Below, one piece after another: positions 12,219-58,563 of a stretch of DNA of 64,000 nt; position 1 is the first letter of the stretch, and each line of letters opens with the position of its first letter. Location of the stretch: positions 18,702-82,701 of the forward strand of contig JANQET010000041.1 in the NCBI GenBank assembly GCA_028278265.1, given 5' to 3'. The translations under genes and the position numbers were made by a program. The DNA is from Myxococcota bacterium (GTDB taxonomy: Bacteria; Myxococcota_A; Polyangia; JAAYKL01). The notes under the pieces were generated by a model that saw only the letters and a list, made by a program, of their open reading frames with translations, searched no databases and was not told where the DNA came from.

Positions 12219-13658
12219 TTAAGGGAGGGGGGACGGGGAATCGCACATCGGGAATACCACGGCCTCAGGATCGATGATCTTCGGTTCTCCTACCTCCACT
12301 TTGAGCGACAGCGGATACCAGTCAATCGTCGGCTCCGCTGACGTCATGGTTGCCGTTGTTGCTTCCATCTTGGACTCGACAGCCCAACAATACTCTGTCA
12401 GATACGGCAGCCCCTGTGGGGAAATCGCCATCGCCCACAGCAGTTGGTCACCGGGGGTCGCGCCGTCGAACGTCACGCCGGTGACGAAGTAGTTCCCGTC
12501 AGGGGCGGGCTGGACATCGTAAAGCCACTCGTTTTCAACACCGCCCCAGTACTTGTGCCACTCTATCTCGCCATCGGTCGGATCCAACCGCATCGCAAAT
12601 CCATCCATACTGCCGTGAGCAGCGACCACACTTCCTCCGACCATGATCAACTCCGTGCTTCCCGGTGCGACCTCGTGCAACGTTGCCGATAGAGCTTCAT
12701 CAGGTGATTGAACGGCCGAGTTCCCATTGTACAGTTTGACCCACTGCGGTGGGTTCTCATTGACCATGTCGAACCGCATCGCCAGAGCGGACGCTCCGGT
12801 CTCTTTCTGGGTTATCATGGTTTTGCCGATTAGAATGTACTGTTCTGCGCCGACTGTAGCATCGGCGACGACAATATCATTTGCGAAATCCGCACCTCCC
12901 GAATCGAATTCACGCTGCCGGCCGATCACGCCCTTGTTGTCGATTTCCATCACCCATAGGTTGGCGTAGCGCGTCTCAGGGTGATACCGCGTACCAGCCA
13001 TCACATATCCCCGCGTGCCCAATTTGGCCAGTGCGATATTGTACCCACTCCCTGCTAAATCGTACCGGTTGTGCCAGACCAGGTTACCCTCCGGATCGAC
13101 GCGCATCGCACACAGATCGCGCTTTGAATAATCGTCCTTCGAAGTGAGTGTCCCGGCAATAGTGATGCCTTGGTGATCGACGACCATATCAGTGGCGGCA
13201 AACTCGAACTTTTTGTTGCTGTACATCTTGTCCCAAACCAAATTTCCAAAGGCGTCGATGTGGGTTAACGTTACCGACAGGGTTTGCTCGCAGATGTTGT
13301 TTTGACAATGAGTGGCCCGTCCTTTTGAAAGCAGGTAGTAGCCAAGGGTTACCCCGAAAAATCGAATCTCGTGCACAGAAACGGCGGGGCGGTCGGACAG
13401 CAAACGGTCCCCCTGCAGCGCGCCATCCGCGTCGTACTTGGCCAAGTAGTGATCCCAGCTAAAGTCATTGGCGGGATAGTCGTAGAACGCAGTTCCGCTG
13501 ATCAAGAAACCACCGTCCGCTGTAGCGATCGTCCGGCTGCCCCTCATATTGCCATCTTTCATGGTATGAAACGTGGCCCAGCTAAGGGCGGCAGCGCTCG
13601 TGGTTGCGAGCATGAGCGTTGTGGCAAGCGCGAATGTCCATTTTCCTCTGCGCATCAT
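12219..13658 (-). CDS. Secreted hypothetical protein, repeat-rich (beta-propeller-like)
   Basis: Likely start at MMRRGKWTFALATTLMLATTSAAALSWA (signal peptide). Recurring GNLVW and GEIEWHKYWGG-type repeats. No catalytic motif recognised. Confidence 0.5.
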   Translation of the reverse strand: MMRRGKWTFALATTLMLATTSAAALSWATFHTMKDGNMRGSRTIATADGGFLISGTAFYDYPANDFSWDHYLAKYDADGALQGDRLLSDRPAVSVHEIRFFGVTLGYYLLSKGRATHCQNNICEQTLSVTLTHIDAFGNLVWDKMYSNKKFEFAATDMVVDHQGITIAGTLTSKDDYSKRDLCAMRVDPEGNLVWHNRYDLAGSGYNIALAKLGTRGYVMAGTRYHPETRYANLWVMEIDNKGVIGRQREFDSGGADFANDIVVADATVGAEQYILIGKTMITQKETGASALAMRFDMVNENPPQWVKLYNGNSAVQSPDEALSATLHEVAPGSTELIMVGGSVVAAHGSMDGFAMRLDPTDGEIEWHKYWGGVENEWLYDVQPAPDGNYFVTGVTFDGATPGDQLLWAMAISPQGLPYLTEYCWAVESKMEATTATMTSAEPTIDWYPLSLKVEVGEPKIIDPEAVVFPMCDSPSPLP

Positions 13659-13991
13659 TATGTTTCTCCATTCAAGCTGTCCCTGTTCAAGGGAGTTTAC
13701 TGTTGATGATTGGGTTTCGCGTAGAGCTGGAAATCTCTGACCAAAAAATTTTCCAAAATCAAAAGGCGGCGGATCGGCAGAACAGTGTTTGGCATCATTC
13801 ATTTTTTTGTTCATAGCAATGAGATTTGCGGTGTTGTTATTTATGTCATGCCTTCACACTGACCGAGGGCAGAACCATTGTGCGTTGTTATGCTTTTCAA
13901 ATTGCACAACGCATGAAGAAACTCGCGCGCATTTTGCGCTATATCGATGAGAGTATTCGCAGAAGAAAACGACAAACAAAGGAGTAAACAA

Positions 13992-14543
13992 ATGAAGATT
14001 ACGAAATTTATCTTGTTGCTGTCTCTCTTTTTCCTCGTCAGCAATGGTGCTTCAGCGGGGGTCGAGAACAAATACTTTAAACACGTTCAGTACTATGCCG
14101 GTGGAGATTCTTGGTTTACGACGACCAGTTTCTCATATCTCAGCACCTGCAACTATGAAAATATGCTGCCGGAGGTCGCGTCCAACTCAGAATGTTATGT
14201 TTACCGAACCAACGTAGGAGTGCCTCCGGTCGATTATCTGCCGCTAAAAGGGGTCAAAAAGATGTATGCCGGGATTTATAAATCCGGCAGTCCAACCATT
14301 CCATATGCGAACTGGTATTTCTGGGATGTCGTTGCCAAATATTGGGATCACACAGTGGACATAGAACGTTCCACGTATGATTCTCCTCATATGGTTTATT
14401 ACGGTTACGAGGATAACGAGCTCAACGATTACCATGGGGTAAATTATCGCACGCGTGACACACCAATGCTGGGAGTGGTCTATAAGGTGCAGGATTCCGG
14501 CCGTAAATATGGGCGGGTTTTTGTGAGCAATCCGTTGCGCTGA
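13992..14543 (+). CDS. Secreted hypothetical protein
   Basis: MKITKFILLLSLFFLVSNGASAG signal peptide. Tyr/Trp-rich. Lies in a lower-GC islet. Confidence 0.45.
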   Translation: MKITKFILLLSLFFLVSNGASAGVENKYFKHVQYYAGGDSWFTTTSFSYLSTCNYENMLPEVASNSECYVYRTNVGVPPVDYLPLKGVKKMYAGIYKSGSPTIPYANWYFWDVVAKYWDHTVDIERSTYDSPHMVYYGYEDNELNDYHGVNYRTRDTPMLGVVYKVQDSGRKYGRVFVSNPLR

Positions 14544-14659
14544 AAATCCGTGTCGAATTGACACACGTCTCTTTTGCGAATATCTGATTCGATTCTCGAA
14601 AATCCTAAACAAAATTGGTCAAGTTCTACTGAAACGTATAAAGCAAACGAAGGTGATAT

Positions 14660-15463
14660 ATGTTTGAAGCTAAGAAAAAAAATATTACCACAAAGAAATC
14701 TCGCGGGTTGGTTTTGGCCTGCTGCATATCGGTACTGGTATTCCTCGGAGCCATTATCTTCAGAGAGGCTGAATCAAAAAATGTAAGAGTAACGCATCAT
14801 AACACGTTACGCATCGGCAATAGCACCGCCAATCGGCCACACCGGAACACATATCTGAAAATGGACGCGCAAAAGATTGCGGCGCTCAGCAATTTTGTCA
14901 GGCAAGCCAGGCGGGATCGGACGTCGGGTGATCAAGATGCGACGTCAGCAGGACCTACCGAAGAAGAGCGAATCGCCGGTGAAATTCTCACCAATCAGAT
15001 CGAATCCCTCACCGATGATCAGCTAGAACAAATTAACAAAGAGAAGGAGATCATCATGAGAACTTACTGGCAGGATGCACCAGGTATACTGACCGAAATG
15101 CTCAATGGCCAGGAGAAGGACGATGATTGGACAAAGCAGGTCCGTGAAACTGGTGAAGAATTTCTGTTCAGCAGCGAGTATCGCGGCACTACACTGGTGA
15201 GTGCGGACTGCCGTGAAACTCTGTGTGAGGTTTTGCTTCACCATCAACATGCAGAAGACGCCGAGAGATTTCGATATAAGGGAGGCGCTGAACAAGGTCC
15301 ATGGTTTGGTGAACAATTCGGTAAAGCGTTTGACCGGGACGACACGTTCATTACGCGCCTTGTGTTTTCCAAGGACAGGAATATCGAGCCGTTCAGGAAG
15401 ATCGGCGATATTATACTGGAGCGATCGCGAACGCGAGTTTCCACAAACGAGGTATCACCATAG
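14660..15463 (+). CDS. Membrane-anchored hypothetical protein
   Basis: N-terminal TM helix (GLVLACCISVLVFLGAIIF) followed by a charged soluble domain. No recognisable motifs. Lower-GC region. Confidence 0.4.
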   Translation: MFEAKKKNITTKKSRGLVLACCISVLVFLGAIIFREAESKNVRVTHHNTLRIGNSTANRPHRNTYLKMDAQKIAALSNFVRQARRDRTSGDQDATSAGPTEEERIAGEILTNQIESLTDDQLEQINKEKEIIMRTYWQDAPGILTEMLNGQEKDDDWTKQVRETGEEFLFSSEYRGTTLVSADCRETLCEVLLHHQHAEDAERFRYKGGAEQGPWFGEQFGKAFDRDDTFITRLVFSKDRNIEPFRKIGDIILERSRTRVSTNEVSP

Positions 15464-15572
15464 TACGTTGGTGTAGCCTCGCACGATTTCACGCCAACCC
15501 CATATTCTACGTTCTACGTTCCGTCTTTTTTTGTCTTGAAGAGTAGTAGGCGAGGGTTATTTGTCTGCTATC

Positions 15573-17054
15573 CTACCATCGGCCGACATACATCGGATAG
15601 GTGTTGTTGCTTGTGTATTGCGTATATTCCACCGGCACAAACTGCGTAAAAATTGTTGCACCGGAAAGAGCAAGCGCTCCATCCCAAGGTTGCGCTCCAG
15701 CCTGCGTGTGTTGTGTATACCACGCCAAGATAATTGCTGAATGTCCGTTGTGTCCTTTTTGTATGTAGTCGCCGCTCTTGGGCGTATATTTTTGACTACA
15801 ATCATACTCTCCCTGGGATATCCATTCCCCAGTGCGGATCCATTTGTAGAAACCAGGTCCATCAGGACAAAAGGAATTGTCAACACCACCGAGGGTATAG
15901 CCGTCCCAACGATAGAGTCGATTATGTGCCTCGAAGATCAGTCCAAGCCCTTCCGGTCCCCCGTGGCCGGGGGGTGGGAATTCTTGGTCATGATCCCACC
16001 AATCATTTTCAGAACTCCACCAATAGTGATTGAAGTACCATGTAGCGGTCTCGTCGCAGCCGCCCTGGGTTGGGGGAATGCCGCCATACTTATTAAAATC
16101 TGTCCCGGACTTGCCGATATCAAAGCGGATGCCTCTTGTCGGATAATTGTTGATGTCTCTGTCGTGAAACTCGAACCAATCGATAAGATTCTCGAAATGA
16201 GTCATCATTTCGAACAGGTGCTGTGTTCGATAGTCCCGCATCCAAACGCTGCCCGAGGGTGCATCCAATCGCCGATCCGTTATCGATTTGATCGCAGGAT
16301 TCCAGAAGAAATCGGGAAAATTGTTGTATTGCTGGCGATTTGTGAAGTATGTGCAAACATCATCGTCATTGGATGGATCGTCATCCGTCGTGCTGGTGTA
16401 ACTGCTCATGGCCACATCGCTATAGTAAACTCGGGTCACCAGAGAGTCGATATCGAGAACAGTAGAACCCCCGTGATTTTTCAAATACATGCTATCCCAG
16501 TATGCCCTGTTTCCGAAAATCGGCAGCTTGTGTAGCTCCGTCAAATTTACGTCCGCCCATGACGCCCGACCACAATAATGGCGACGATTGCCGTTGATCG
16601 GTCTGAACGAGACTGGCACTTCGATGCAATCGCTTGACGTTTTACAGAAGGCGACTTCTCTGGTCCAACGAGTATGAGCTGGATTGGTATCCAGCACAAT
16701 TTCTACGACGAGGTCCAAAGCCTTGGCACCTTCAAAAAGGTCTCCTTTTTGTTCCCCGACCCGCTCCGCATCCCATCTCGACAATTGGTCCGCCATCATC
16801 TCCATTGCCTGATTGATATCTTCATCAGGTGCAACCTCGGTCTGGCTCTGGACATCGGCTAATTCTGGGTAGAGTGGTAAAGGGTTCGCATTTTCCGCGG
16901 TGGCGGGATGGGTCATTTCCTCCGTATCCATATATTGATCTTCGTTTTCGATATTGGGCCCTTCATCGATTTCACAAGCTAAGTTGAAGAACATCAATCC
17001 GACGATCAAAAACTTGAATTTGAACTTCACATTGGATAATTTTTTCATCATCAT
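15573..17054 (-). CDS. Secreted lipoprotein, hypothetical (acidic N-terminal region; Trp/Tyr-rich C-terminal domain)
   Basis: MMMKKLSNVKFKFKFLIVGLMFFNLACEID (signal plus lipobox LAC). 493 aa. No confidently recognised catalytic motif. Confidence 0.5.
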   Translation of the reverse strand: MMMKKLSNVKFKFKFLIVGLMFFNLACEIDEGPNIENEDQYMDTEEMTHPATAENANPLPLYPELADVQSQTEVAPDEDINQAMEMMADQLSRWDAERVGEQKGDLFEGAKALDLVVEIVLDTNPAHTRWTREVAFCKTSSDCIEVPVSFRPINGNRRHYCGRASWADVNLTELHKLPIFGNRAYWDSMYLKNHGGSTVLDIDSLVTRVYYSDVAMSSYTSTTDDDPSNDDDVCTYFTNRQQYNNFPDFFWNPAIKSITDRRLDAPSGSVWMRDYRTQHLFEMMTHFENLIDWFEFHDRDINNYPTRGIRFDIGKSGTDFNKYGGIPPTQGGCDETATWYFNHYWWSSENDWWDHDQEFPPPGHGGPEGLGLIFEAHNRLYRWDGYTLGGVDNSFCPDGPGFYKWIRTGEWISQGEYDCSQKYTPKSGDYIQKGHNGHSAIILAWYTQHTQAGAQPWDGALALSGATIFTQFVPVEYTQYTSNNTYPMYVGRW

Positions 17055-17595
17055 TCCTTCAGTGTTGGCACCTATTGTGCAGGTGGCTTTCGAGATTAGT
17101 TGAGGCCTCAGTTCTCTTAACTGATAAACACCGAAAATGCGGTTGGTACGAACTGATATCTTCGCTGATCTGATTTGATCAATCGGCTGTGAATCGAGTC
17201 GTCAATCGGCAAGAGGAGTAAGTCCATTGAATCCAGCTCACGGATACGCGAATGAATTCTCATTCTGTCGCCGAAGTTGTGTGCCCCTCCGAGTGGACCA
17301 TCTTCTCATCGACAATAATCGAAGACGACACATGGCCCGAGCTCGTGGTGGAACGATAAGCTGTCTGTCATGGGGCCGCCGCCACCCATAGTCGCCAAAA
17401 AGACAATGGTGTCGATCACTACCAATAGTCGGCAACTGCTTCGTTTTTTCTAATTTAGAAAAGATTCTTTTTTTCGCCCAAAACCCAGCCGAGTCCCGTT
17501 CTTTTACTGAGCCGAAAAGAACAGGCGTCTGTAGAGCGACAGATCCTGTCGATTGTTCTTTTCATATCTTGACCCTTAACCAGGAGGAAATTGAA

Positions 17596-18012
17596 ATGTA
17601 TCGATTCTACGTGGGTATGATTCTCTGTTTGGTTTTGGCCATGGGTGGTTGCGATGAATATGAGGACGAAGTCGTCGACGCTGAATTCGCCCAACTTCAG
17701 GACGAGGTGCAAGATCCCAAGCCGATTGTCATGTGCATCAGCGAATGCAAACGCGAATACCGAGATTGTCTGCAAAGCGGGGTACCCGAAGCCCAATGTG
17801 CCCGGGAAAGAACCCAGTGCATCGGTTTCTGCAGCGAGGAAGAAGTCCTCATTCCAGGCGACGGGGCGGAAGAACATTTCTATTCCAACTCGGGTTGGTG
17901 TCCTCCTCACAAAGCATGTGGCCGTCAGTGCTGCAACTCCCGAGCTTCGCAGCATTGTTGTGAGCCTGGAATTTGTTCGAGGAGAATTGGTAGCCAGGAG
18001 GTTTGTCTGTAG
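17596..18012 (+). CDS. Small cysteine-rich secreted lipoprotein
   Basis: AGGAGG ribosome-binding site at 17583-17588. MYRFYVGMILCLVLAMGGCDEYEDE (lipobox). About 19 Cys in 139 aa with an acidic N-terminal segment, the same style as 48401..48934. The overlapping minus ORF 17455..18120 looks non-coding. Confidence 0.45.
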   Translation: MYRFYVGMILCLVLAMGGCDEYEDEVVDAEFAQLQDEVQDPKPIVMCISECKREYRDCLQSGVPEAQCARERTQCIGFCSEEEVLIPGDGAEEHFYSNSGWCPPHKACGRQCCNSRASQHCCEPGICSRRIGSQEVCL

Positions 18013-18207
18013 AGACTTCCCTGAATTACGACCGATTTCACTTCGATAATTTATCCGCATCCAGCAAATCATTACGATGAAAAATATCTGTCGGACTGAG
18101 GGGAGGGTGCGCCCTTTCAAGGCTGCGACTATTCTAAACCCAGCGCGTTGCGTTGAGCTGGTACTGAGTCGCCCCTTCAGCCTACCCTTTGGGCCAGAGC
18201 CTGTTTG

Positions 18208-52379: not shown

Positions 52380-53228
52380 TCATGTGGTGAGAATTGAAGA
52401 GACCGTTTCATTGTACAGCAGTTCGATTTGTTGCACCAAGGGACCGAGGCTCTGCGGGTTGAAACTCAGAAACTCGACTGCCTCGGGGATCAGCGGCGGA
52501 ACCAGTTGTTCACCGCTGCTGCCCAGTCGCAGGGCGTTGGCGATCAGATCCCCCAGGTGGACAATGGCGACCTCGGCGGTCGCGGCCCACGGGCCGTGGT
52601 GAAACTGAATCGCATTGCAGATCGTTTCGGGCAGGTTCCAGGCCTTGGCCAGCAGGACGCCGAGCTGGGTGTGGTTGAAGCCGAGCACGTCGTTCTCAAT
52701 GCGATAGAACGGGAGCGTTTCCCGCTGGTGACGGGTGATGATCTCCAGTGCCAGGTCGGGCAGCTGGGTGTAGACCACCAGCTTACCGATGTCGTGCAAC
52801 ATCCCGGAGACAAATGCTTGCTCGGTATTTTTGAAGCGACGCGACTTGGCGATGGCGCGGGCCCCGATTCCCGTGGCGATGCTGTGCTTCCAGAATTGGC
52901 GCATGTTGATCACCTCTTCGGGAATGTCCTCGAACTGGGAAACGACCGAGGTGGCCAGGGCCAGATCCCGTAGCTCGTCAAAGCCGATCACCAGGGTGGC
53001 GCGGGTCACCGTCTCGATTGGATTGGATAGACAGTAGAACGGGCTGTTGACCAGTCGCAGCAGGCGGGCGGTGAGATCCGGGTCCTCACTGACCACTTCG
53101 CCGATCTCCTGCACCGATACATCCGGGCGTTTCATCACCGCGTTGAGCCGCGTATACACATCCGGCAGACTCGCAATCCGGCCCAGGGATTTGATCAACT
53201 TGTTCGGATCGAGGCGGTGGGTCATCAA
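52380..53228 (-). CDS. HDOD-domain signalling protein
   Basis: LPDVYTRLNAVM...VSGMLHDIGKLVVYTQL is the characteristic HDOD (HD-related output domain) motif with MLHDIGK. Confidence 0.75.
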   Translation of the reverse strand: MMTHRLDPNKLIKSLGRIASLPDVYTRLNAVMKRPDVSVQEIGEVVSEDPDLTARLLRLVNSPFYCLSNPIETVTRATLVIGFDELRDLALATSVVSQFEDIPEEVINMRQFWKHSIATGIGARAIAKSRRFKNTEQAFVSGMLHDIGKLVVYTQLPDLALEIITRHQRETLPFYRIENDVLGFNHTQLGVLLAKAWNLPETICNAIQFHHGPWAATAEVAIVHLGDLIANALRLGSSGEQLVPPLIPEAVEFLSFNPQSLGPLVQQIELLYNETVSSILTT

Positions 53229-53557
53229 TCCCTCTCGGCACCGGCGGTGAACAAGAGCCGCTGGAGACAGACCTCGTAGAGTTGGGCAACCAGGGGATCT
53301 TCTCGATCGGTGTTGACGAAACGGGTGTCCAACCCCTCTCGGGCCCGTTCAATTTCAGCGGGGTCGAACTCCTCCGGTGTCTGGGGATCATCCTCGGTTT
53401 GAATATCCACGTGGGTGATTTGCTGGGCGATGATGATGCGGATATGGCGGTCGGATATCGGCCGGCCCGCCGGCAGCATCAGCTGTCCGTTGCTGTTGAA
53501 CAGGTCGGTTTTGAGAACCATTCCGGTGGTCAATTCTTCGACTTCGACCAGTGCCAT
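53225..53557 (-). CDS. Small regulatory-domain protein (resembles the DUF3391-type N-terminal domain often fused to HD-GYP proteins)
   Basis: MALVEVEELTTGMVLKTDLFNSNGQLMLPAGRPISDRHIRII. Overlaps the HDOD gene start (ATGA). The assignment rests on overall similarity only. Confidence 0.4.
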   Translation of the reverse strand: MALVEVEELTTGMVLKTDLFNSNGQLMLPAGRPISDRHIRIIIAQQITHVDIQTEDDPQTPEEFDPAEIERAREGLDTRFVNTDREDPLVAQLYEVCLQRLLFTAGAERD

Positions 53558-53734
53558 CTAGGCTGCTCCGGTTCGTTGAGCTTGAACAGGCGCTGAGCAA
53601 AAGCATAGTGTCAATCTTTCACACCCTCTCAATTAAATCTGGATCGAATTTCGAGGGGAGACAACATTGCAGGATTGCAGGGGTGCCGTACCACGTTGTT
53701 ATACAGAGGATTGGAAATCCCAATTTGTGGCGGC

Positions 53735-54232
53735 TCAGGAAGTAATCTCACCAAGAACGAAACGAGCGCGTTCCCGTCGCAACATCTCGAAGGGCGTCAG
53801 AAATTTTATTTTTAGTCCGATACAAGCATTTGGAATTTTTATTCTTTTCCGGGAATCTGAAAGGATTTCATGTGTTACAACGGTATGGCCATGAGCGAGG
53901 GCGTAGGCGATAAGAAAATAGTCGGCAATCTGGAGAAACAAACTCACTGCTGCCGGATCATAATCCTGACCTTGAGCCCACCTGGCTACGTCCCCTAGAA
54001 CGGTGAGCATTTTTTGGTCCGGTTGAAGAAAGAAGTTTGTGTCTCTCTCCGCTGCCCACCGGGCGAGATCATCATTACCAGCGTGTAGCTCATCTGCGAT
54101 CTTCTCAATGCTGTATACACGTTCTGCTTTGTTTTCCAAAATAAGCCAGTCCCAGAAAGCGGGACAAAAGTCCATTCCATAGTGCAAATTTTTAGCCTGA
54201 ATAAACACGTTGGCGTCTAGAAGATATGCCAT
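53735..54232 (-). CDS. DUF4411-family PIN-like putative nuclease
   Basis: MAYLLDANVFIQAKNLHYGMDFCPAFWDWL... has an N-terminal Asp in a PIN-like strand. Its size and its position immediately after an ImmA/IrrE gene match the known DUF4411 context. Low-GC islet. Confidence 0.6.
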   Translation of the reverse strand: MAYLLDANVFIQAKNLHYGMDFCPAFWDWLILENKAERVYSIEKIADELHAGNDDLARWAAERDTNFFLQPDQKMLTVLGDVARWAQGQDYDPAAVSLFLQIADYFLIAYALAHGHTVVTHEILSDSRKRIKIPNACIGLKIKFLTPFEMLRRERARFVLGEITS

Positions 54233-55374
54233 TACATCACACCCAGGCGTTGTCCGAGTGCGTTGAATGTGGTCATTTTTGAAATGCTAAGCATCCGCAA
54301 TGCATCTCGGTGGAGTGTCTGACCCTCAAGCGTGCTGATAACAAGCGCACGGGCAAAACGTTTGCTTACTCTGGCGGTTTGTGTGAGGTAGAAATTACCG
54401 CCGCTGCCCTTTGGTAGTGCCATCAAATGTGCAAGCTGATTTTCGTACGCCTTTCCTAGCTCATCTCGCGTCACCCCCCCAACGTCATAGATGCGACGCA
54501 GAATGACCAAAGTACTCGCTTTAAAATACCGGGCCAGACGATTGATCTCGTCATTGAGATTATTGGAACGATCATAAATTCTGTTCAGATGATTCAAGGG
54601 TACCAGCAGCTCCGCCGCCACCTGATTGCACCAGCTCTCGATTTGGTGAGTTGATGGTTCAAGTGCCTGAGTATCGGACAACGCCGCCTGTCCCAGCCAG
54701 ATATGCGCCAACTCATGCGCCAGCGTAAACATTTGTGCTGATTTGGTATCCCCTCCGTTAACGAATATGAGAGGTGCGAGTTCATCAGCTAGGGTGAAAC
54801 CGCGAAACTCGTGTGGATTGAGTTTTCGTTTTGTGTTGTTGCCAACAACACCACTCACCATCACTAGTATGCCCTGTTCATCTGCAAGTTCGATGAAGCG
54901 ACGCAATGCATCGGTCCAGGTTCTCATGTGCTGACGCTCTTCGAGATTGAATCCCAATGTATTCCGGATGTCCGCAGCAGCAATATTTGTATCATCAGCG
55001 AGTTTGGATGTGCCAACGAACGGTAGAGGCCCCGCTCCCATCGAACGTTCGAAATCGCGGTACCATTCCTGTCGCTGCTGGCAGAGGTGAATAGTGTCGA
55101 GCAGATCAGGACTGGGTCGGACGAGATCGGCTCTGTTCAAGGTGCGAAAGTCAGGAATTGGCACTGACTCTTTGGGAGGGGTATCAAGAAAAAAGAAGCC
55201 AATTGGTGTGTAGGTCGCCTTGGCAAAGGATTCAAGTTGTTTGAGTGTTGGAGATAGTTGACCGCTTAGCCAATTGTCGAGTTTTGGAAGTTTTTTCCTG
55301 AGATCTGTAGGGCTTTTGTTGCAACGCAGAAGGGCCCAACGGAGCATCTCCTTTTTCACATTTACTCGATTCAT
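54232..55374 (-). CDS. XRE-type HTH fused to ImmA/IrrE-family zinc metallopeptidase (COG2856)
   Basis: N-terminal HTH-like (MNRVNVKKEMLRWALLRCNKSPTDLRKKL). HEXXH-containing ImmA/IrrE core (FTLAHELAHIWLGQAALSD) followed by a C-terminal helical domain. Confidence 0.7.
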   Translation of the reverse strand: MNRVNVKKEMLRWALLRCNKSPTDLRKKLPKLDNWLSGQLSPTLKQLESFAKATYTPIGFFFLDTPPKESVPIPDFRTLNRADLVRPSPDLLDTIHLCQQRQEWYRDFERSMGAGPLPFVGTSKLADDTNIAAADIRNTLGFNLEERQHMRTWTDALRRFIELADEQGILVMVSGVVGNNTKRKLNPHEFRGFTLADELAPLIFVNGGDTKSAQMFTLAHELAHIWLGQAALSDTQALEPSTHQIESWCNQVAAELLVPLNHLNRIYDRSNNLNDEINRLARYFKASTLVILRRIYDVGGVTRDELGKAYENQLAHLMALPKGSGGNFYLTQTARVSKRFARALVISTLEGQTLHRDALRMLSISKMTTFNALGQRLGVM

Positions 55375-56220
55375 GTACTCTTCGCTACCAAATCAATCAC
55401 CCCTTGAATATAGATCAAGCTCAAATTGGATACCAGTTCTTGTTGAAACCGGTTTTCGGACTCTTTAACTATACGAGTCTGCGGACAGTGATGTGGACGG
55501 TGATTCGGACAATGATGCGGATAGCGATGGAGATGCGGAGTCGTAGAGATCGCATGCGGCGTCGGTGTCGGAATCGATACCAGTGCGCTTGTCCAGGGAC
55601 GCCGGAGTGTGAGACGTTGAAGGCGTGTCTGGCCGATCCCAACGGGGCCGGGTGTACGGGGATTCTGCAGCGCAAGCGGTGTCCGACGATCTGCGGCGGT
55701 TGAGCATGGAGCGGGAGGCGTTCACCCCTCAAGAACCGCACACCCTGCGGCTCGATTTTCTCAAGGACTCGGCCGAGCTCGAGCCGGTGTTTATTCGTGG
55801 CGATTCCGAGCTGGGCTATTTTCGCGCTCTGTACATGATGAACAACGTGCGGTGGGCCCCGGCTACTCCAATATCTGGGAGTGAGAAGAGGACTACGACG
55901 ATCCCACCACCGGGAACCGGTGATCGGCTGGATGTGGAACATCGGACACACCATTCGCCCCAACGGAGAAGTGCTCCAGGGAAATCCCGCCTTGACCAAG
56001 GAGCAGCTACCCATGACCCCGCAAAACGAAAAGCACCTACTACGACGACCTGGTCCTGTGGGCATTGGAGTATCTGGGATAATGAGAGTCGGTACGATCC
56101 GCCAATCAGGACAATCGGGATTGTAAAAAGATGTAAAAACTGTCACCTCTCTTTTTACATCTTTTCATTGGTTCCCTGCCTCAGGCTCACCTATATTCAA
56201 AGAAGCCAAAAGGAGCGGAA

Positions 56221-57669
56221 ATGTCCAACAATCATCAGAACGATAAATCCTCAGTTGTGAATCGCCGTGGGTTTCTGAAACTGTCGGGTACGGCCGCAGT
56301 GGTGGCAGGTGGTATCGTCGGGGGATGCGGGGGGGCTGTTTTGTCGAGCGGCGCCGGGAAACCGACCTCGATCGCACCGGACGTTGAAGCGGTGACTCCT
56401 GTGGAGGAGGATTCACCGGCTCAGTCCACTCCCGGTATCAAGCAGTATCGCGTATTGGGCAGGACCGGGTTCGAGGTTTCCGATATTTCGATGGGGGGAT
56501 CCCTTTCCGATTCCAATGTGCTGCGCTATGCCTACGATCGAGGTGTCAACCTGGTCGACACAGCCGAGGTTTACGGCAACGGGGACTCCGAGAGAAAAAT
56601 CGGAATGGCGTTACCCGAGATGGATCGCAAGAAGATTTTCGTGGTGACCAAGTTGATCTTGCGACCTGACGACACGGAACAGACCTTGTTCGACCGATTC
56701 ACAAAATGCCAGGAACGTCTCGACACAGAATATGTCGACGCCCTCTACATTCACAATGCGACCCTCGTCAAAGAGGTTTCCCACGAGGCGTTTCATCAAA
56801 CGGCTACCCGGCTCAAGCGAGATGGCAGGTTGCGCTTTATTGGGATTTCGTCTCACGGACCCAGCGACCCGCAGCACGACAGCATGGAGAAAGTCCTCCT
56901 GAGCGCCGTGGAGGATGGGCGTTTCGATCTGATGCTGATGACGTACAACTTTCTCAACGCTCAAGAGGGTGGACGGGTGCTCAACGCCTGTAAAGAGAAG
57001 AACATCGGCACTGTCTGTATGAAAGCCGCAGCCGGCAGAATCGAAATCGACTCGTTCGATCCGGAGAATCCAACGGAAGATCAGCGGCGCCTGTTGGACA
57101 AATATACGAAACGAGGGATGACTCGCGACAAAGCTATTGAAATCATCCAAAAGCGAGTCGATCACGCCACTGCCCAGTGGGAAAAGGACAACCCCGCGGT
57201 GCGCACTTTCATGAGCAAGTACGGTGTCGACGACCAGAGATCCCTCGATCGGGCGAGTCGTCAATGGGTGCTGCAAAATTCGGACATGCATACCCTCTGC
57301 GTCACCATGCCGGATTTCGACTCCATCGACGCGACACTCCCTCTCTCCGGTATCGGGATCTCGCCTCGCCAGGCGGCGATGCTCGACGACTATCGCAGAG
57401 TATTCGGCGGCCGGTACTGTCGACACGGCTGCACCATGTGCGCCCATCTCTGTCCCAAGGGCGTTCGTGTCAGCACAGTGATGCGTTACTTCTATTATTT
57501 TCACAATCAAGGTCGAGAGCGAATGGCGATGGAAAAGTACGCGCGGTTGGACCAGCGCAACGCCGAATCCTGCTGGGACTGTGACGCTCCTTGTCTGGCG
57601 GGTTGCCCGTACAACTTTCAAATTCAAGCCTCGCTGACCAAAGCCCACAATACGCTGTCATTTGCTTAA
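56221..57669 (+). CDS. Tat-exported aldo/keto reductase fused to a C-terminal Fe-S (ferredoxin-like) domain
   Basis: Tat-like NRRGFLKLSGTAAVVAGG. Aldo/keto-reductase core (YAYDRGVNLVDTAEVYGNGDSE, FIGISSHG). C-terminal Cys motifs (CRHGCTMCAHLCPKG, CWDCDAPCLAGCPYN). AAAAGGAG ribosome-binding site upstream. Confidence 0.7.
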   Translation: MSNNHQNDKSSVVNRRGFLKLSGTAAVVAGGIVGGCGGAVLSSGAGKPTSIAPDVEAVTPVEEDSPAQSTPGIKQYRVLGRTGFEVSDISMGGSLSDSNVLRYAYDRGVNLVDTAEVYGNGDSERKIGMALPEMDRKKIFVVTKLILRPDDTEQTLFDRFTKCQERLDTEYVDALYIHNATLVKEVSHEAFHQTATRLKRDGRLRFIGISSHGPSDPQHDSMEKVLLSAVEDGRFDLMLMTYNFLNAQEGGRVLNACKEKNIGTVCMKAAAGRIEIDSFDPENPTEDQRRLLDKYTKRGMTRDKAIEIIQKRVDHATAQWEKDNPAVRTFMSKYGVDDQRSLDRASRQWVLQNSDMHTLCVTMPDFDSIDATLPLSGIGISPRQAAMLDDYRRVFGGRYCRHGCTMCAHLCPKGVRVSTVMRYFYYFHNQGRERMAMEKYARLDQRNAESCWDCDAPCLAGCPYNFQIQASLTKAHNTLSFA

Positions 57670-57760: not shown

Positions 57761-58306
57761 TCAAATCCCCGCGGGATTGCTGTGTGCGATGTGAAGGGCG
57801 ATGAATATAAAGAAGGCAATTAGCATCGCCCATATTGCGATAGTATGGCCAGCCCTGAACGTTAAGATTTTGTCAATGTCCTTCAAATGAGCGCACTTGC
57901 TCTGTAAGAGACGATTGAGTTTGTTGGCGCTGACACCGTATGCGGTTGGGTTGACCACAAAAATCTTCTCACCCGAAGCATTGTAGAAATTGTAGTAGAT
58001 GTAGCGACCAGCACCAAAGCCTCCCCTTTCCCGATCCACTCTATCGATATCGCAGAATCGAACTGATTTTTTTCCACGGCGCATCCGATCATGAAAAAAA
58101 ACCAATGCTCCTCCTCTGTATCGAAAGATGAACATCAGCGATAAAAAGATGAGAAATACCGCCGGAACTACCCGATCGGTATCGAGGCGATCGCTGAACA
58201 GAGATCCGCCCAGAATTGCGAGTGCGAGCAACAACGGAGCGACCGGCAACAGCGGTGATGGCCACACCTTGATGTGTGGGTCTTTTTCTGAGAGAGACGG
58301 GTTCAT
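57761..58306 (-). CDS. Small membrane protein, hypothetical
   Basis: MNPSLSEKDPHIKVWPSPLLPVAPLLLALAILGGSLF and a second TM helix (AVFLIFLSLMFIF), followed by a soluble C-terminal domain. Confidence 0.4.
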   Translation of the reverse strand: MNPSLSEKDPHIKVWPSPLLPVAPLLLALAILGGSLFSDRLDTDRVVPAVFLIFLSLMFIFRYRGGALVFFHDRMRRGKKSVRFCDIDRVDRERGGFGAGRYIYYNFYNASGEKIFVVNPTAYGVSANKLNRLLQSKCAHLKDIDKILTFRAGHTIAIWAMLIAFFIFIALHIAHSNPAGI

Positions 58307-58563
58307 TTCGCAATGGTTTCCTGTTTGGCGTGTCGTACGATTCGTCTTCGGCCCTCCGAACACCGTTCCAAGGTGTGGTAGCACTCGCCGACGCCTGCTA
58401 TCTTTTTGATGCGAATTAATACCTTGCGTTTATCGGGCTCGCTCAATCTTCTTGTTCCCCAAAGGGATCTATTTTTATCCCAAAATTTTATTTAATGCAC
58501 CATCCCTCGATTTGAGAATTACGGTTCAAAGGACAACCTGTGGGATTATCGAAGACAAAAAAG

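Follow-up and report, generated by a model that had tools for sequence, protein, structure and literature searches.

Two adjacent minus-strand genes in a 64,000-nt stretch of Myxococcota bacterium DNA (assembly GCA_028278265.1, contig JANQET010000041.1, positions 18,702 to 82,701; this whole stretch is called the window below) make up an AT-rich islet that is very likely an intact, horizontally acquired type II toxin–antitoxin (TA) cassette of the VapBC52 kind known from Mycobacterium tuberculosis. The upstream gene encodes a large protein in which an Xre-like domain is joined to an ImmA/IrrE-type zinc peptidase (hereafter the antitoxin), and the downstream gene encodes a DUF4411 protein that is predicted to be a PIN-like nuclease (the toxin). 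The cassette can equally be described as a helix-turn-helix (HTH)–ImmA/IrrE-peptidase antitoxin with a DUF4411 toxin, in short as ‘RosmerTA-like with a PIN toxin’. Three things are shown for the window copy: how its genes are arranged, that they are homologous to a known pair, and that the residues that matter are intact. An initial annotation of the locus had suggested a TA- or abortive-infection-like module, and this reading is supported by the existence of a characterised homologous pair, VapBC52, and by the pairing of the two genes in 21/21 loci.

The two proteins are homologues of VapB52 and VapC52

The VapB52:VapC52 complex of M. tuberculosis has been solved (PDB 9vzy and 9vzz; Singh et al., Nucleic Acids Res June 2026, PMC13273310). 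VapC52 is a PIN-fold tRNase that cleaves in anticodon or variable loops. It is neutralised by VapB52, an unusually large three-domain antitoxin that shows 1:2 binding to the toxin dimer in the crystal structure. Binding depends on the Xre-like N-terminal domain (NTD) of VapB52, which sits on the outer side of the VapC52 dimer, the middle domain is a zinc peptidase resembling IrrE and CapP, and the helical C-terminal domain (CTD) covers the toxin active site. The peptidase cuts the N-terminal toxin-binding domain of VapB52 itself and not a separate repressor. The activation signal is single-stranded DNA (ssDNA), and a zinc-capping cysteine has been proposed to hold both VapB52 and CapP off until ssDNA binds.

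In a phmmer comparison, the window antitoxin matched VapB52 (chain 9vzy_A, labelled ‘HTH cro/C1-type domain-containing protein’) with an E-value (E) of 6.4e-18, its residues 6-345 corresponding to chain residues 2-356, and a profile of the antitoxin family matched the same chain over residues 6-344 at E 2.9e-25. The window toxin matched VapC52 (9vzy_D, labelled ‘DUF4411 family protein’) at E 7.8e-7, and the toxin family profile matched this chain too. The pair belongs to the same two protein families as VapBC52, and the gene order is also the same, with the antitoxin gene first and the DUF4411 toxin gene directly downstream. Within the antitoxin, the likeness runs from the Xre-like NTD through a D-F-R junction and a zinc site of HEXXH plus Glu with an internal HTH to a helical CTD that begins at GGN[FW]Y. 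The VapB52 zinc ligands H216, H220 and E245 align with H220, H224 and E246 of the window protein, F76-R77 align with the VapB52 FR motif, and GGNFY (from residue 325) aligns with the GGNWY that opens the VapB52 CTD. As judged by alignment, every antitoxin residue to which the VapBC52 paper assigns a function, except the cysteine switch, is present in the window copy.

The toxin carries a full-length Pfam DUF4411 domain (residues 3-158 aligned with positions 1-159 of the 159-position profile, E 6e-53). It begins with MAYLLDANVF, in which the aspartate is D6, so that the DUF4411 partner with a PIN-like N-terminus named in the initial annotation is indeed there. The PIN acidic residues are shared with VapC52, where E48, D104 and E122 find their counterparts in E, D and E, and over 21 distinct toxin copies that are 33-71% identical, D6, E48, D104 and E122 are invariant.

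Domain structure and conservation of the antitoxin

Pfam placed a Peptidase_M78 (ImmA/IrrE) domain at residues 164-295 of the antitoxin (E 7.7e-16), with HELAH at residues 220-224 as the HEXXH motif. No HTH profile of Pfam matched residues 1-168, even at E<=10, and because of this the HTH claim draws on homology to VapB52: residues 6-71 align with the VapB52 NTD, which is an Xre-type five-helix fold in the crystal structure. An AlphaFold2 (AF2) model places helices at residues 8-18, 22-25, 32-36, 44-53 and 58-62 (predicted local distance difference test score, pLDDT, 73-88). Foldseek aligned stretches of some 61 residues locally with the DNA-binding domain of ImmR (7t8i, TMt 0.76) and with an Xre antitoxin (3omt, TMt 0.71). 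The best whole-chain matches of the model were PrpR, IrrE, CapP and PprI; the Foldseek E-values are weak because the antitoxin model is poor. Together, VapB52 homology, AF2 and Foldseek indirectly support an Xre-like fold of the NTD, so the fusion of an HTH to a HEXXH ImmA/IrrE protease, as initially annotated, is supported.

The initial annotation had singled out this fusion as a special feature, which it is not: it is the norm for the antitoxin family and has been on record since 2017. DUF4411.1 genes downstream of fused HTH-DUF955 (COG2856) genes were then described as putative three-component TA modules (Matelska et al., NAR 2017, PMC5499597). The architecture of those modules is exactly that of the window pair; they are a genomic prediction only, with a mechanism limited to ‘regulator, nuclease, protease’.

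When 1.84 billion representative proteins were searched with the family profile at a cut-off of E<=1e-30, 2,352 clusters were returned, nearly all of them full length (~380-390 aa). Conservation was assessed in 125 diverse, full-length representatives whose identity with the window antitoxin is 35-61%. The junction motif is kept in most of them (D75 in 122/125, F76 in 99/125 and R77 in 124/125), as is the zinc site (H220 in 121/125, E221 in 120/125, H224 in 122/125 and E246 in 124/125), and the CTD residues G325, G326, F328, Y329, R339 and F340 are conserved as well. At position 233, where VapB52 has its switch cysteine, 100/125 relatives have Ser, 10 have Asp, five Thr and five Phe; Cys falls outside the five commonest residues. 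There are 46 columns with conservation of 90% or more, and the window protein has the consensus residue at 45 of them (the median for family members is 44), so the antitoxin is not decaying.

A further cysteine, C249 (54628-54630), lies three residues past the zinc ligand E246 and is kept in 120/125 relatives and in VapB52, in the context WCN in the window antitoxin and RCN in VapB52. We found no discussion of it in the available portions of the VapBC52 paper. C249 may play a part in the control of the antitoxin by metal or redox state, in a family that lacks the cysteine switch.

The cassette is an intact, compositionally foreign islet

Both open reading frames (ORFs) of the pair are intact and full length, and they lie exactly at the coordinates initially annotated, with a shared stop/start, TAATG (Table 1). 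The junction reads GTG ATG TAATGG, in which base 54232 is common to the TAA stop codon of the antitoxin gene and the ATG of the toxin gene, a 1-nt overlap. The AT-richness claimed for the islet is real and modest. Its GC content is 0.485 compared with 0.566 for the window, and the GC profile delimits a low-GC tract from ~53600 to 55500, that is, the two genes and ~100-170 nt on either side. GC at third codon positions (GC3) is 0.50 in the antitoxin gene and 0.45 in the toxin gene, whereas 35 long ORFs in the window average 0.69 (sd 0.09), which gives z -2.2 and -2.8, respectively, and the synonymous-codon log-likelihoods of the two genes deviate likewise (z -2.1 and -2.2). Equally AT-rich 1640-bp windows make up 3.9% of all, nearly all in one other region at ~13-16.5 kb. 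This foreign composition fits recent horizontal acquisition.

Table 1. Positions of the cassette, its motifs and its immediate borders (window coordinates)
Feature	Position	Strand	Description
Antitoxin gene	54232..55374	-	380 aa; VapB52-like, three domains (Xre-like NTD, IrrE/CapP-type zinc peptidase with internal HTH, helical CTD)
N-terminal Xre-like five-helix domain	55162..55374	-	Residues 1-71; putatively toxin-binding, by homology
D75-F76-R77 junction motif	55144..55152	-	Aligned with VapB52 ‘FR’ motif (probable self-cleavage site)
Zinc-peptidase core	54490..54885	-	Pfam M78, residues 164-295
HELAH	54703-54717	-	Within zinc-peptidase core
S233	54676-54678	-	At VapB52 cysteine-switch position, by alignment to VapB52
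Third zinc ligand E246	54637-54639	-	Antitoxin
C-terminal helical domain	54235..54405	-	Residues 324-380; opens with GGNFY; would occlude toxin active site, by homology
Toxin gene	53735..54232	-	165 aa; predicted DUF4411 PIN-like nuclease
Toxin acidic residues	D6 54215-54217; E48 54089-54091; D104 53921-53923; E122 53867-53869	-	
AT-rich 3' flank of cassette	53558..53734	-	GC profile and sequence; reaches start of next host gene
Next host gene, 110-aa ORF	53225-53557		Borders 3' flank of cassette
Candidate sigma-70-like promoter	55468..55497	-	TCCACA, 18-nt spacer, TATAGT; ~95 nt upstream of antitoxin ATG; weak evidence

The two genes are paired across diverse genomic contexts

A check of conserved synteny had been proposed with the initial annotation, and it gave a uniform result: searching with the toxin (DUF4411) led to 21 independent loci on chromosomes, plasmids and viral contigs, and in every one (21/21) the toxin gene starts where a full-length M78-family gene ends. 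The surroundings are diverse. In several other genomes, the pair is a solitary two-gene cassette among housekeeping genes. On the conjugative Sphingomonas plasmid pCADAB1, it lies within a row of three TA modules, and on an IncF plasmid it sits beside a DUF1778-GNAT TA. It also adjoins an integrase gene together with restriction-modification (R-M) genes (L006), and in L095 too it stands next to an integrase gene. In two unrelated type I R-M operons, the pair is inserted between hsdS and hsdR (L002 6859-8495 and L103 4859-6495); the former operon also holds an AAA-ATPase gene and a 211-aa gene, the latter an HEPN gene and DarT-DarG (DarTG). Finally, a 40%-identical pair is found in a bona fide prophage (L100 4847-6504) between KilA-N/DUF968 and endolysin (GH108) plus large terminase genes, which is a typical slot for prophage accessory genes.

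Relation to other peptidase-linked systems

The antitoxin combines an HTH with an ImmA-type zinc peptidase and in this resembles the RmrA antitoxins of RosmerTA (RmrT/RmrA). These systems, from the 2022 work of Millman and colleagues, are reportedly anti-phage TA systems. Among PADLOC models, the best match of the window antitoxin was capP (8.9e-15); 14 RmrA models also matched (best E 4.8e-11), some over residues 27-306, and these matches are weak next to that with VapB52. The adjacent DUF4411 toxin, in contrast to a RosmerTA toxin, matched no RmrT or other PADLOC model at E<=0.01. A link of this antitoxin type with PIN-like toxins has been seen before in NetFlax, where an ImmA/RmrA antitoxin hub is connected to them (Ernits et al., PNAS 2023, PMC10440598); validated RmrT toxins are of other kinds, for example membrane-depolarising (PMC10440598).

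With CapP/CapH (a regulator of CBASS, the cyclic-oligonucleotide-based antiphage signalling system), IrrE(PprI)/DdrO of Deinococcus and ImmA/ImmR of ICEBs1, the window antitoxin shares the M78 zinc-peptidase core and an adjoining HTH motif, and only this core (residues ~188-298) can be aligned. Activation of the protease by a DNA-damage or ssDNA signal has been reported for CapP and for VapB52. CapP, IrrE and ImmA cut a separate HTH repressor and thereby switch genes on, whereas in the window antitoxin, by analogy with VapB52, protease and substrate would be one chain and the output would be the release of a bound toxin.

Weighing the assignment against its alternatives

Several points count against a VapBC52-type assignment or narrow it. 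The window antitoxin and VapB52 share no more than 24% identity across 332 aligned positions, and the window toxin aligns with VapC52 over residues 33-148 only. The switch cysteine, C229 in VapB52, is Ser233 in the window antitoxin, and because of this, ssDNA activation via a cysteine switch is not simply transferable. Because both AF2 models are poor, fold support comes chiefly through sequence homology: the antitoxin model, built from a 25-sequence alignment, has a mean pLDDT of 58, is usable only in the NTD and in some of the peptidase core, and is of low confidence in the CTD, and the toxin model (pLDDT 49) is unusable. Expression, toxicity, neutralisation, self-cleavage and RNA targets are properties that we infer for the window copy by analogy. 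A consensus scan yielded no convincing promoter for the cassette, the site counts being not clearly above shuffled expectation; the candidate in Table 1 has 9/12 consensus matches by consensus scan only, and the regional number of such sites is not above that in shuffled sequence. Upstream of the antitoxin gene, nine loci had no palindrome or k-mer in common, beyond what close relatives share, that would indicate a conserved operator, and a Pfam scan of the neighbours found no other defence genes near the pair in the window. As to defence, PMC13273310 reports protection against phage D29 by VapC52 overexpressed alone, but not with the antitoxin co-expressed. Because protection was seen only with the toxin alone, defence by the intact system is unproven even for VapBC52, and here the argument for such a role is one of genomic context only. 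VapBC52 also belongs to another phylum, and the window copy is solitary on a chromosome.

The initial annotation had regarded the islet as a remnant of a mobile element, and in that spirit it could be the decayed regulatory core of a prophage or integrative and conjugative element (ICE), in which the HTH-ImmA fusion would act as a repressor/anti-repressor switch in the ICEBs1 manner and DUF4411 would be accessory cargo. The M78 and Xre-like domain types are those of ImmA and ImmR, the composition is foreign, some relatives stand beside integrases or in a prophage, and a decayed ORF is possibly present in the neighbouring 0.85 kb. Against this, window scans found no tRNA and no Rfam element, Pfam no integrase or transposase domain among the neighbouring genes, and a flank repeat check no att-like repeats above chance (the best was a 12-nt exact pair at 53433/55512 with one copy inside a neighbouring gene), which leaves the remnant reading unsupported. 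The low-GC tract stops close to the two genes, the candidate ORF remnant (55600-56126) is host-like in GC, lies on the opposite strand and has a single hypothetical relative, and solitary cassettes occur among housekeeping genes elsewhere. The pair is rare in phages: 50,697 phage genomes gave two weak matches, and 2.9 million viral contigs held 14 loci. There is also no separate repressor gene, as the HTH-like domain and the protease are one 380-aa chain and no small HTH ORF is adjacent. The full-length homologue VapB52 cuts itself and not a separate repressor (PMC13273310), and in the window there is no mobile element to be regulated. We regard the ImmR/ImmA analogy as the wrong functional model and the decayed core as very unlikely.

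Another possibility is that the protein is a DNA-damage regulator of other genes like CapP/CapH or IrrE/DdrO and that DUF4411 is a regulated effector rather than a bound toxin. The best PADLOC match being capP would agree with this, as would the PrpR, IrrE, CapP and PprI hits that head the Foldseek list and the location of the pair inside larger defence operons in L002 and L103. However, the capP and IrrE matches cover the peptidase core alone, whereas the VapB52 match spans residues 6-345, and there is no small CapH- or DdrO-like HTH gene beside the pair in the window. In all 21 loci the two genes are strictly adjacent, one to one and with overlapping stop/start, as is characteristic of proteins that act as a stoichiometric pair, and the homologues bind each other directly (1:2) in the crystal structure. 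We consider a regulator of this kind very improbable. An inert passenger, that is, a silenced or decaying cassette, would suit the lack of a convincing promoter and the lone position in a housekeeping neighbourhood; it is hard to square with two full-length ORFs, with the near-complete match to the conserved antitoxin columns and with catalytic and motif residues that are all intact in both proteins, and we consider it highly improbable. Overall, an intact, acquired TA cassette of the VapBC52 kind accounts best for the locus.

A model for the cassette

Carried over from VapBC52, these observations suggest a model in which the two genes are co-transcribed and, given the 1-nt overlap, probably translationally coupled. 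One antitoxin would hold a toxin dimer, with its Xre-like NTD on the outer face and its helical CTD over the PIN active site. A stress or infection signal would then activate the antitoxin's own zinc peptidase, which would cut at the D-F-R junction and so remove the N-terminal toxin-binding domain. The freed DUF4411 nuclease would cut tRNA anticodon or variable loops and arrest translation, and the outcome may be growth arrest, plasmid addiction or abortive infection.

In one step, this model is likely to need its own version. Because Ser, which is near-invariant at this position, replaces the zinc-capping cysteine in the window antitoxin and in most of the family, the off-state of the peptidase and the way in which it is switched on probably differ in detail from those of VapB52. 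A bolder proposal, which we advance tentatively and with a low estimate of its probability, is that the Ser-bearing family uses a different trigger or gating of self-destruction and that the pair is possibly a second-line abortive-infection device sensing the products of DNA processing by restriction. Such a role is suggested by the recurrence of the pair between hsdS and hsdR. We know of no intact HTH-M78/DUF4411 system that has been shown to sense restriction products as an abortive-infection device.

Flanking sequences and other AT-rich regions

A terminator scan found no terminator-like site past the toxin stop codon. To define the insertion, we looked for relatives without the islet by means of the two genes that flank it: the aldo-keto-reductase (AKR) gene gave at best 48% identity in genome contigs, none close enough, and in metagenomes the AKR gene had no match and the HDOD gene one of 41% at best. 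Because no relative was close enough to reveal an empty site, the insertion boundaries are those indicated by composition.

The 0.85 kb at 55375-56220 had been annotated as downstream sequence that looks like degraded coding DNA. This is only partly right. The stretch is on the 5' side of the operon, with a host-like GC of 0.55-0.67, and it shows no detectable link to the module; what remains of the claim is a possible frameshifted ORF on the plus strand. The period-3 GC signal fits the plus strand, in frame +1 at ~55600-55850 and in frame +2 at ~55880-56120, and this change of frame near 55860 suggests that there may be a frameshifted gene at 55600-56126 (+). An 81-aa plus-strand ORF at 55881-56126 contains MWNIGHTIRPNGEVLQGNPAL, and it and one metagenomic hypothetical protein (P0241) both carry MWNIGHTIRPNGE(V/I)L(Q/E)GNPAL; P0241 is its sole significant relative (E 3.6e-6 against 5.8 billion sequences). 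We take 55600-56126 (+) to be a small or frameshifted gene or remnant, with no detectable tie to the module or to a mobile element. A minus-strand ORF at 55469-56146 (198/225 aa in gene calls) was considered as part of the operon and rejected: it has GC of 0.53 at second codon positions (GC2) and GC3 of 0.61, has no Pfam match and is alone in its cluster. With so atypical a codon-position pattern (GC2 over 0.5) and no relatives, it probably represents a shadow ORF.

Three further features were seen in the window. A perfect inverted repeat with 14-nt arms (AAAAGATGTAAAAA / TTTTTACATCTTTT) separated by 12 nt occupies 56126-56165. It precedes by 56 nt the start of the aldo-keto-reductase/ferredoxin gene at 56221 and could be an operator or a hairpin. 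Past the AKR gene and 2.4 kb from the islet, an AT-rich 207-aa ORF (57761-58384, minus strand; GC 0.495, GC3 0.54) has hydrophobic segments and no Pfam family. A second, larger AT-rich stretch at 12219-18120 (GC 0.455-0.49 in 1.6-kb windows) has four long ORFs, 12219-13814(-), 14660-15463(+), 15573-17054(-) and 17455-18120(-), none of which has a Pfam match at E<=1e-3; with its orphan genes, this stretch may likewise have been acquired.

Significance

The HTH-M78/DUF4411 family was predicted in 2017 (PMC5499597) and characterised in 2026 (PMC13273310), and the pairing itself is not new. For this genome, the gain is one of annotation, two unnamed genes becoming a VapBC52-type TA pair in a self-contained cassette. 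For the family, the chief novelty is the cysteine-to-serine difference, which is common to most of its members. The only characterised example, M. tuberculosis VapBC52, is a sequence outlier; the mainstream consists of thousands of clusters in many phyla, often in defence islands, and has Ser in place of the cysteine switch. The window pair is a reasonable representative for asking whether the intact system defends against phages and what triggers it.

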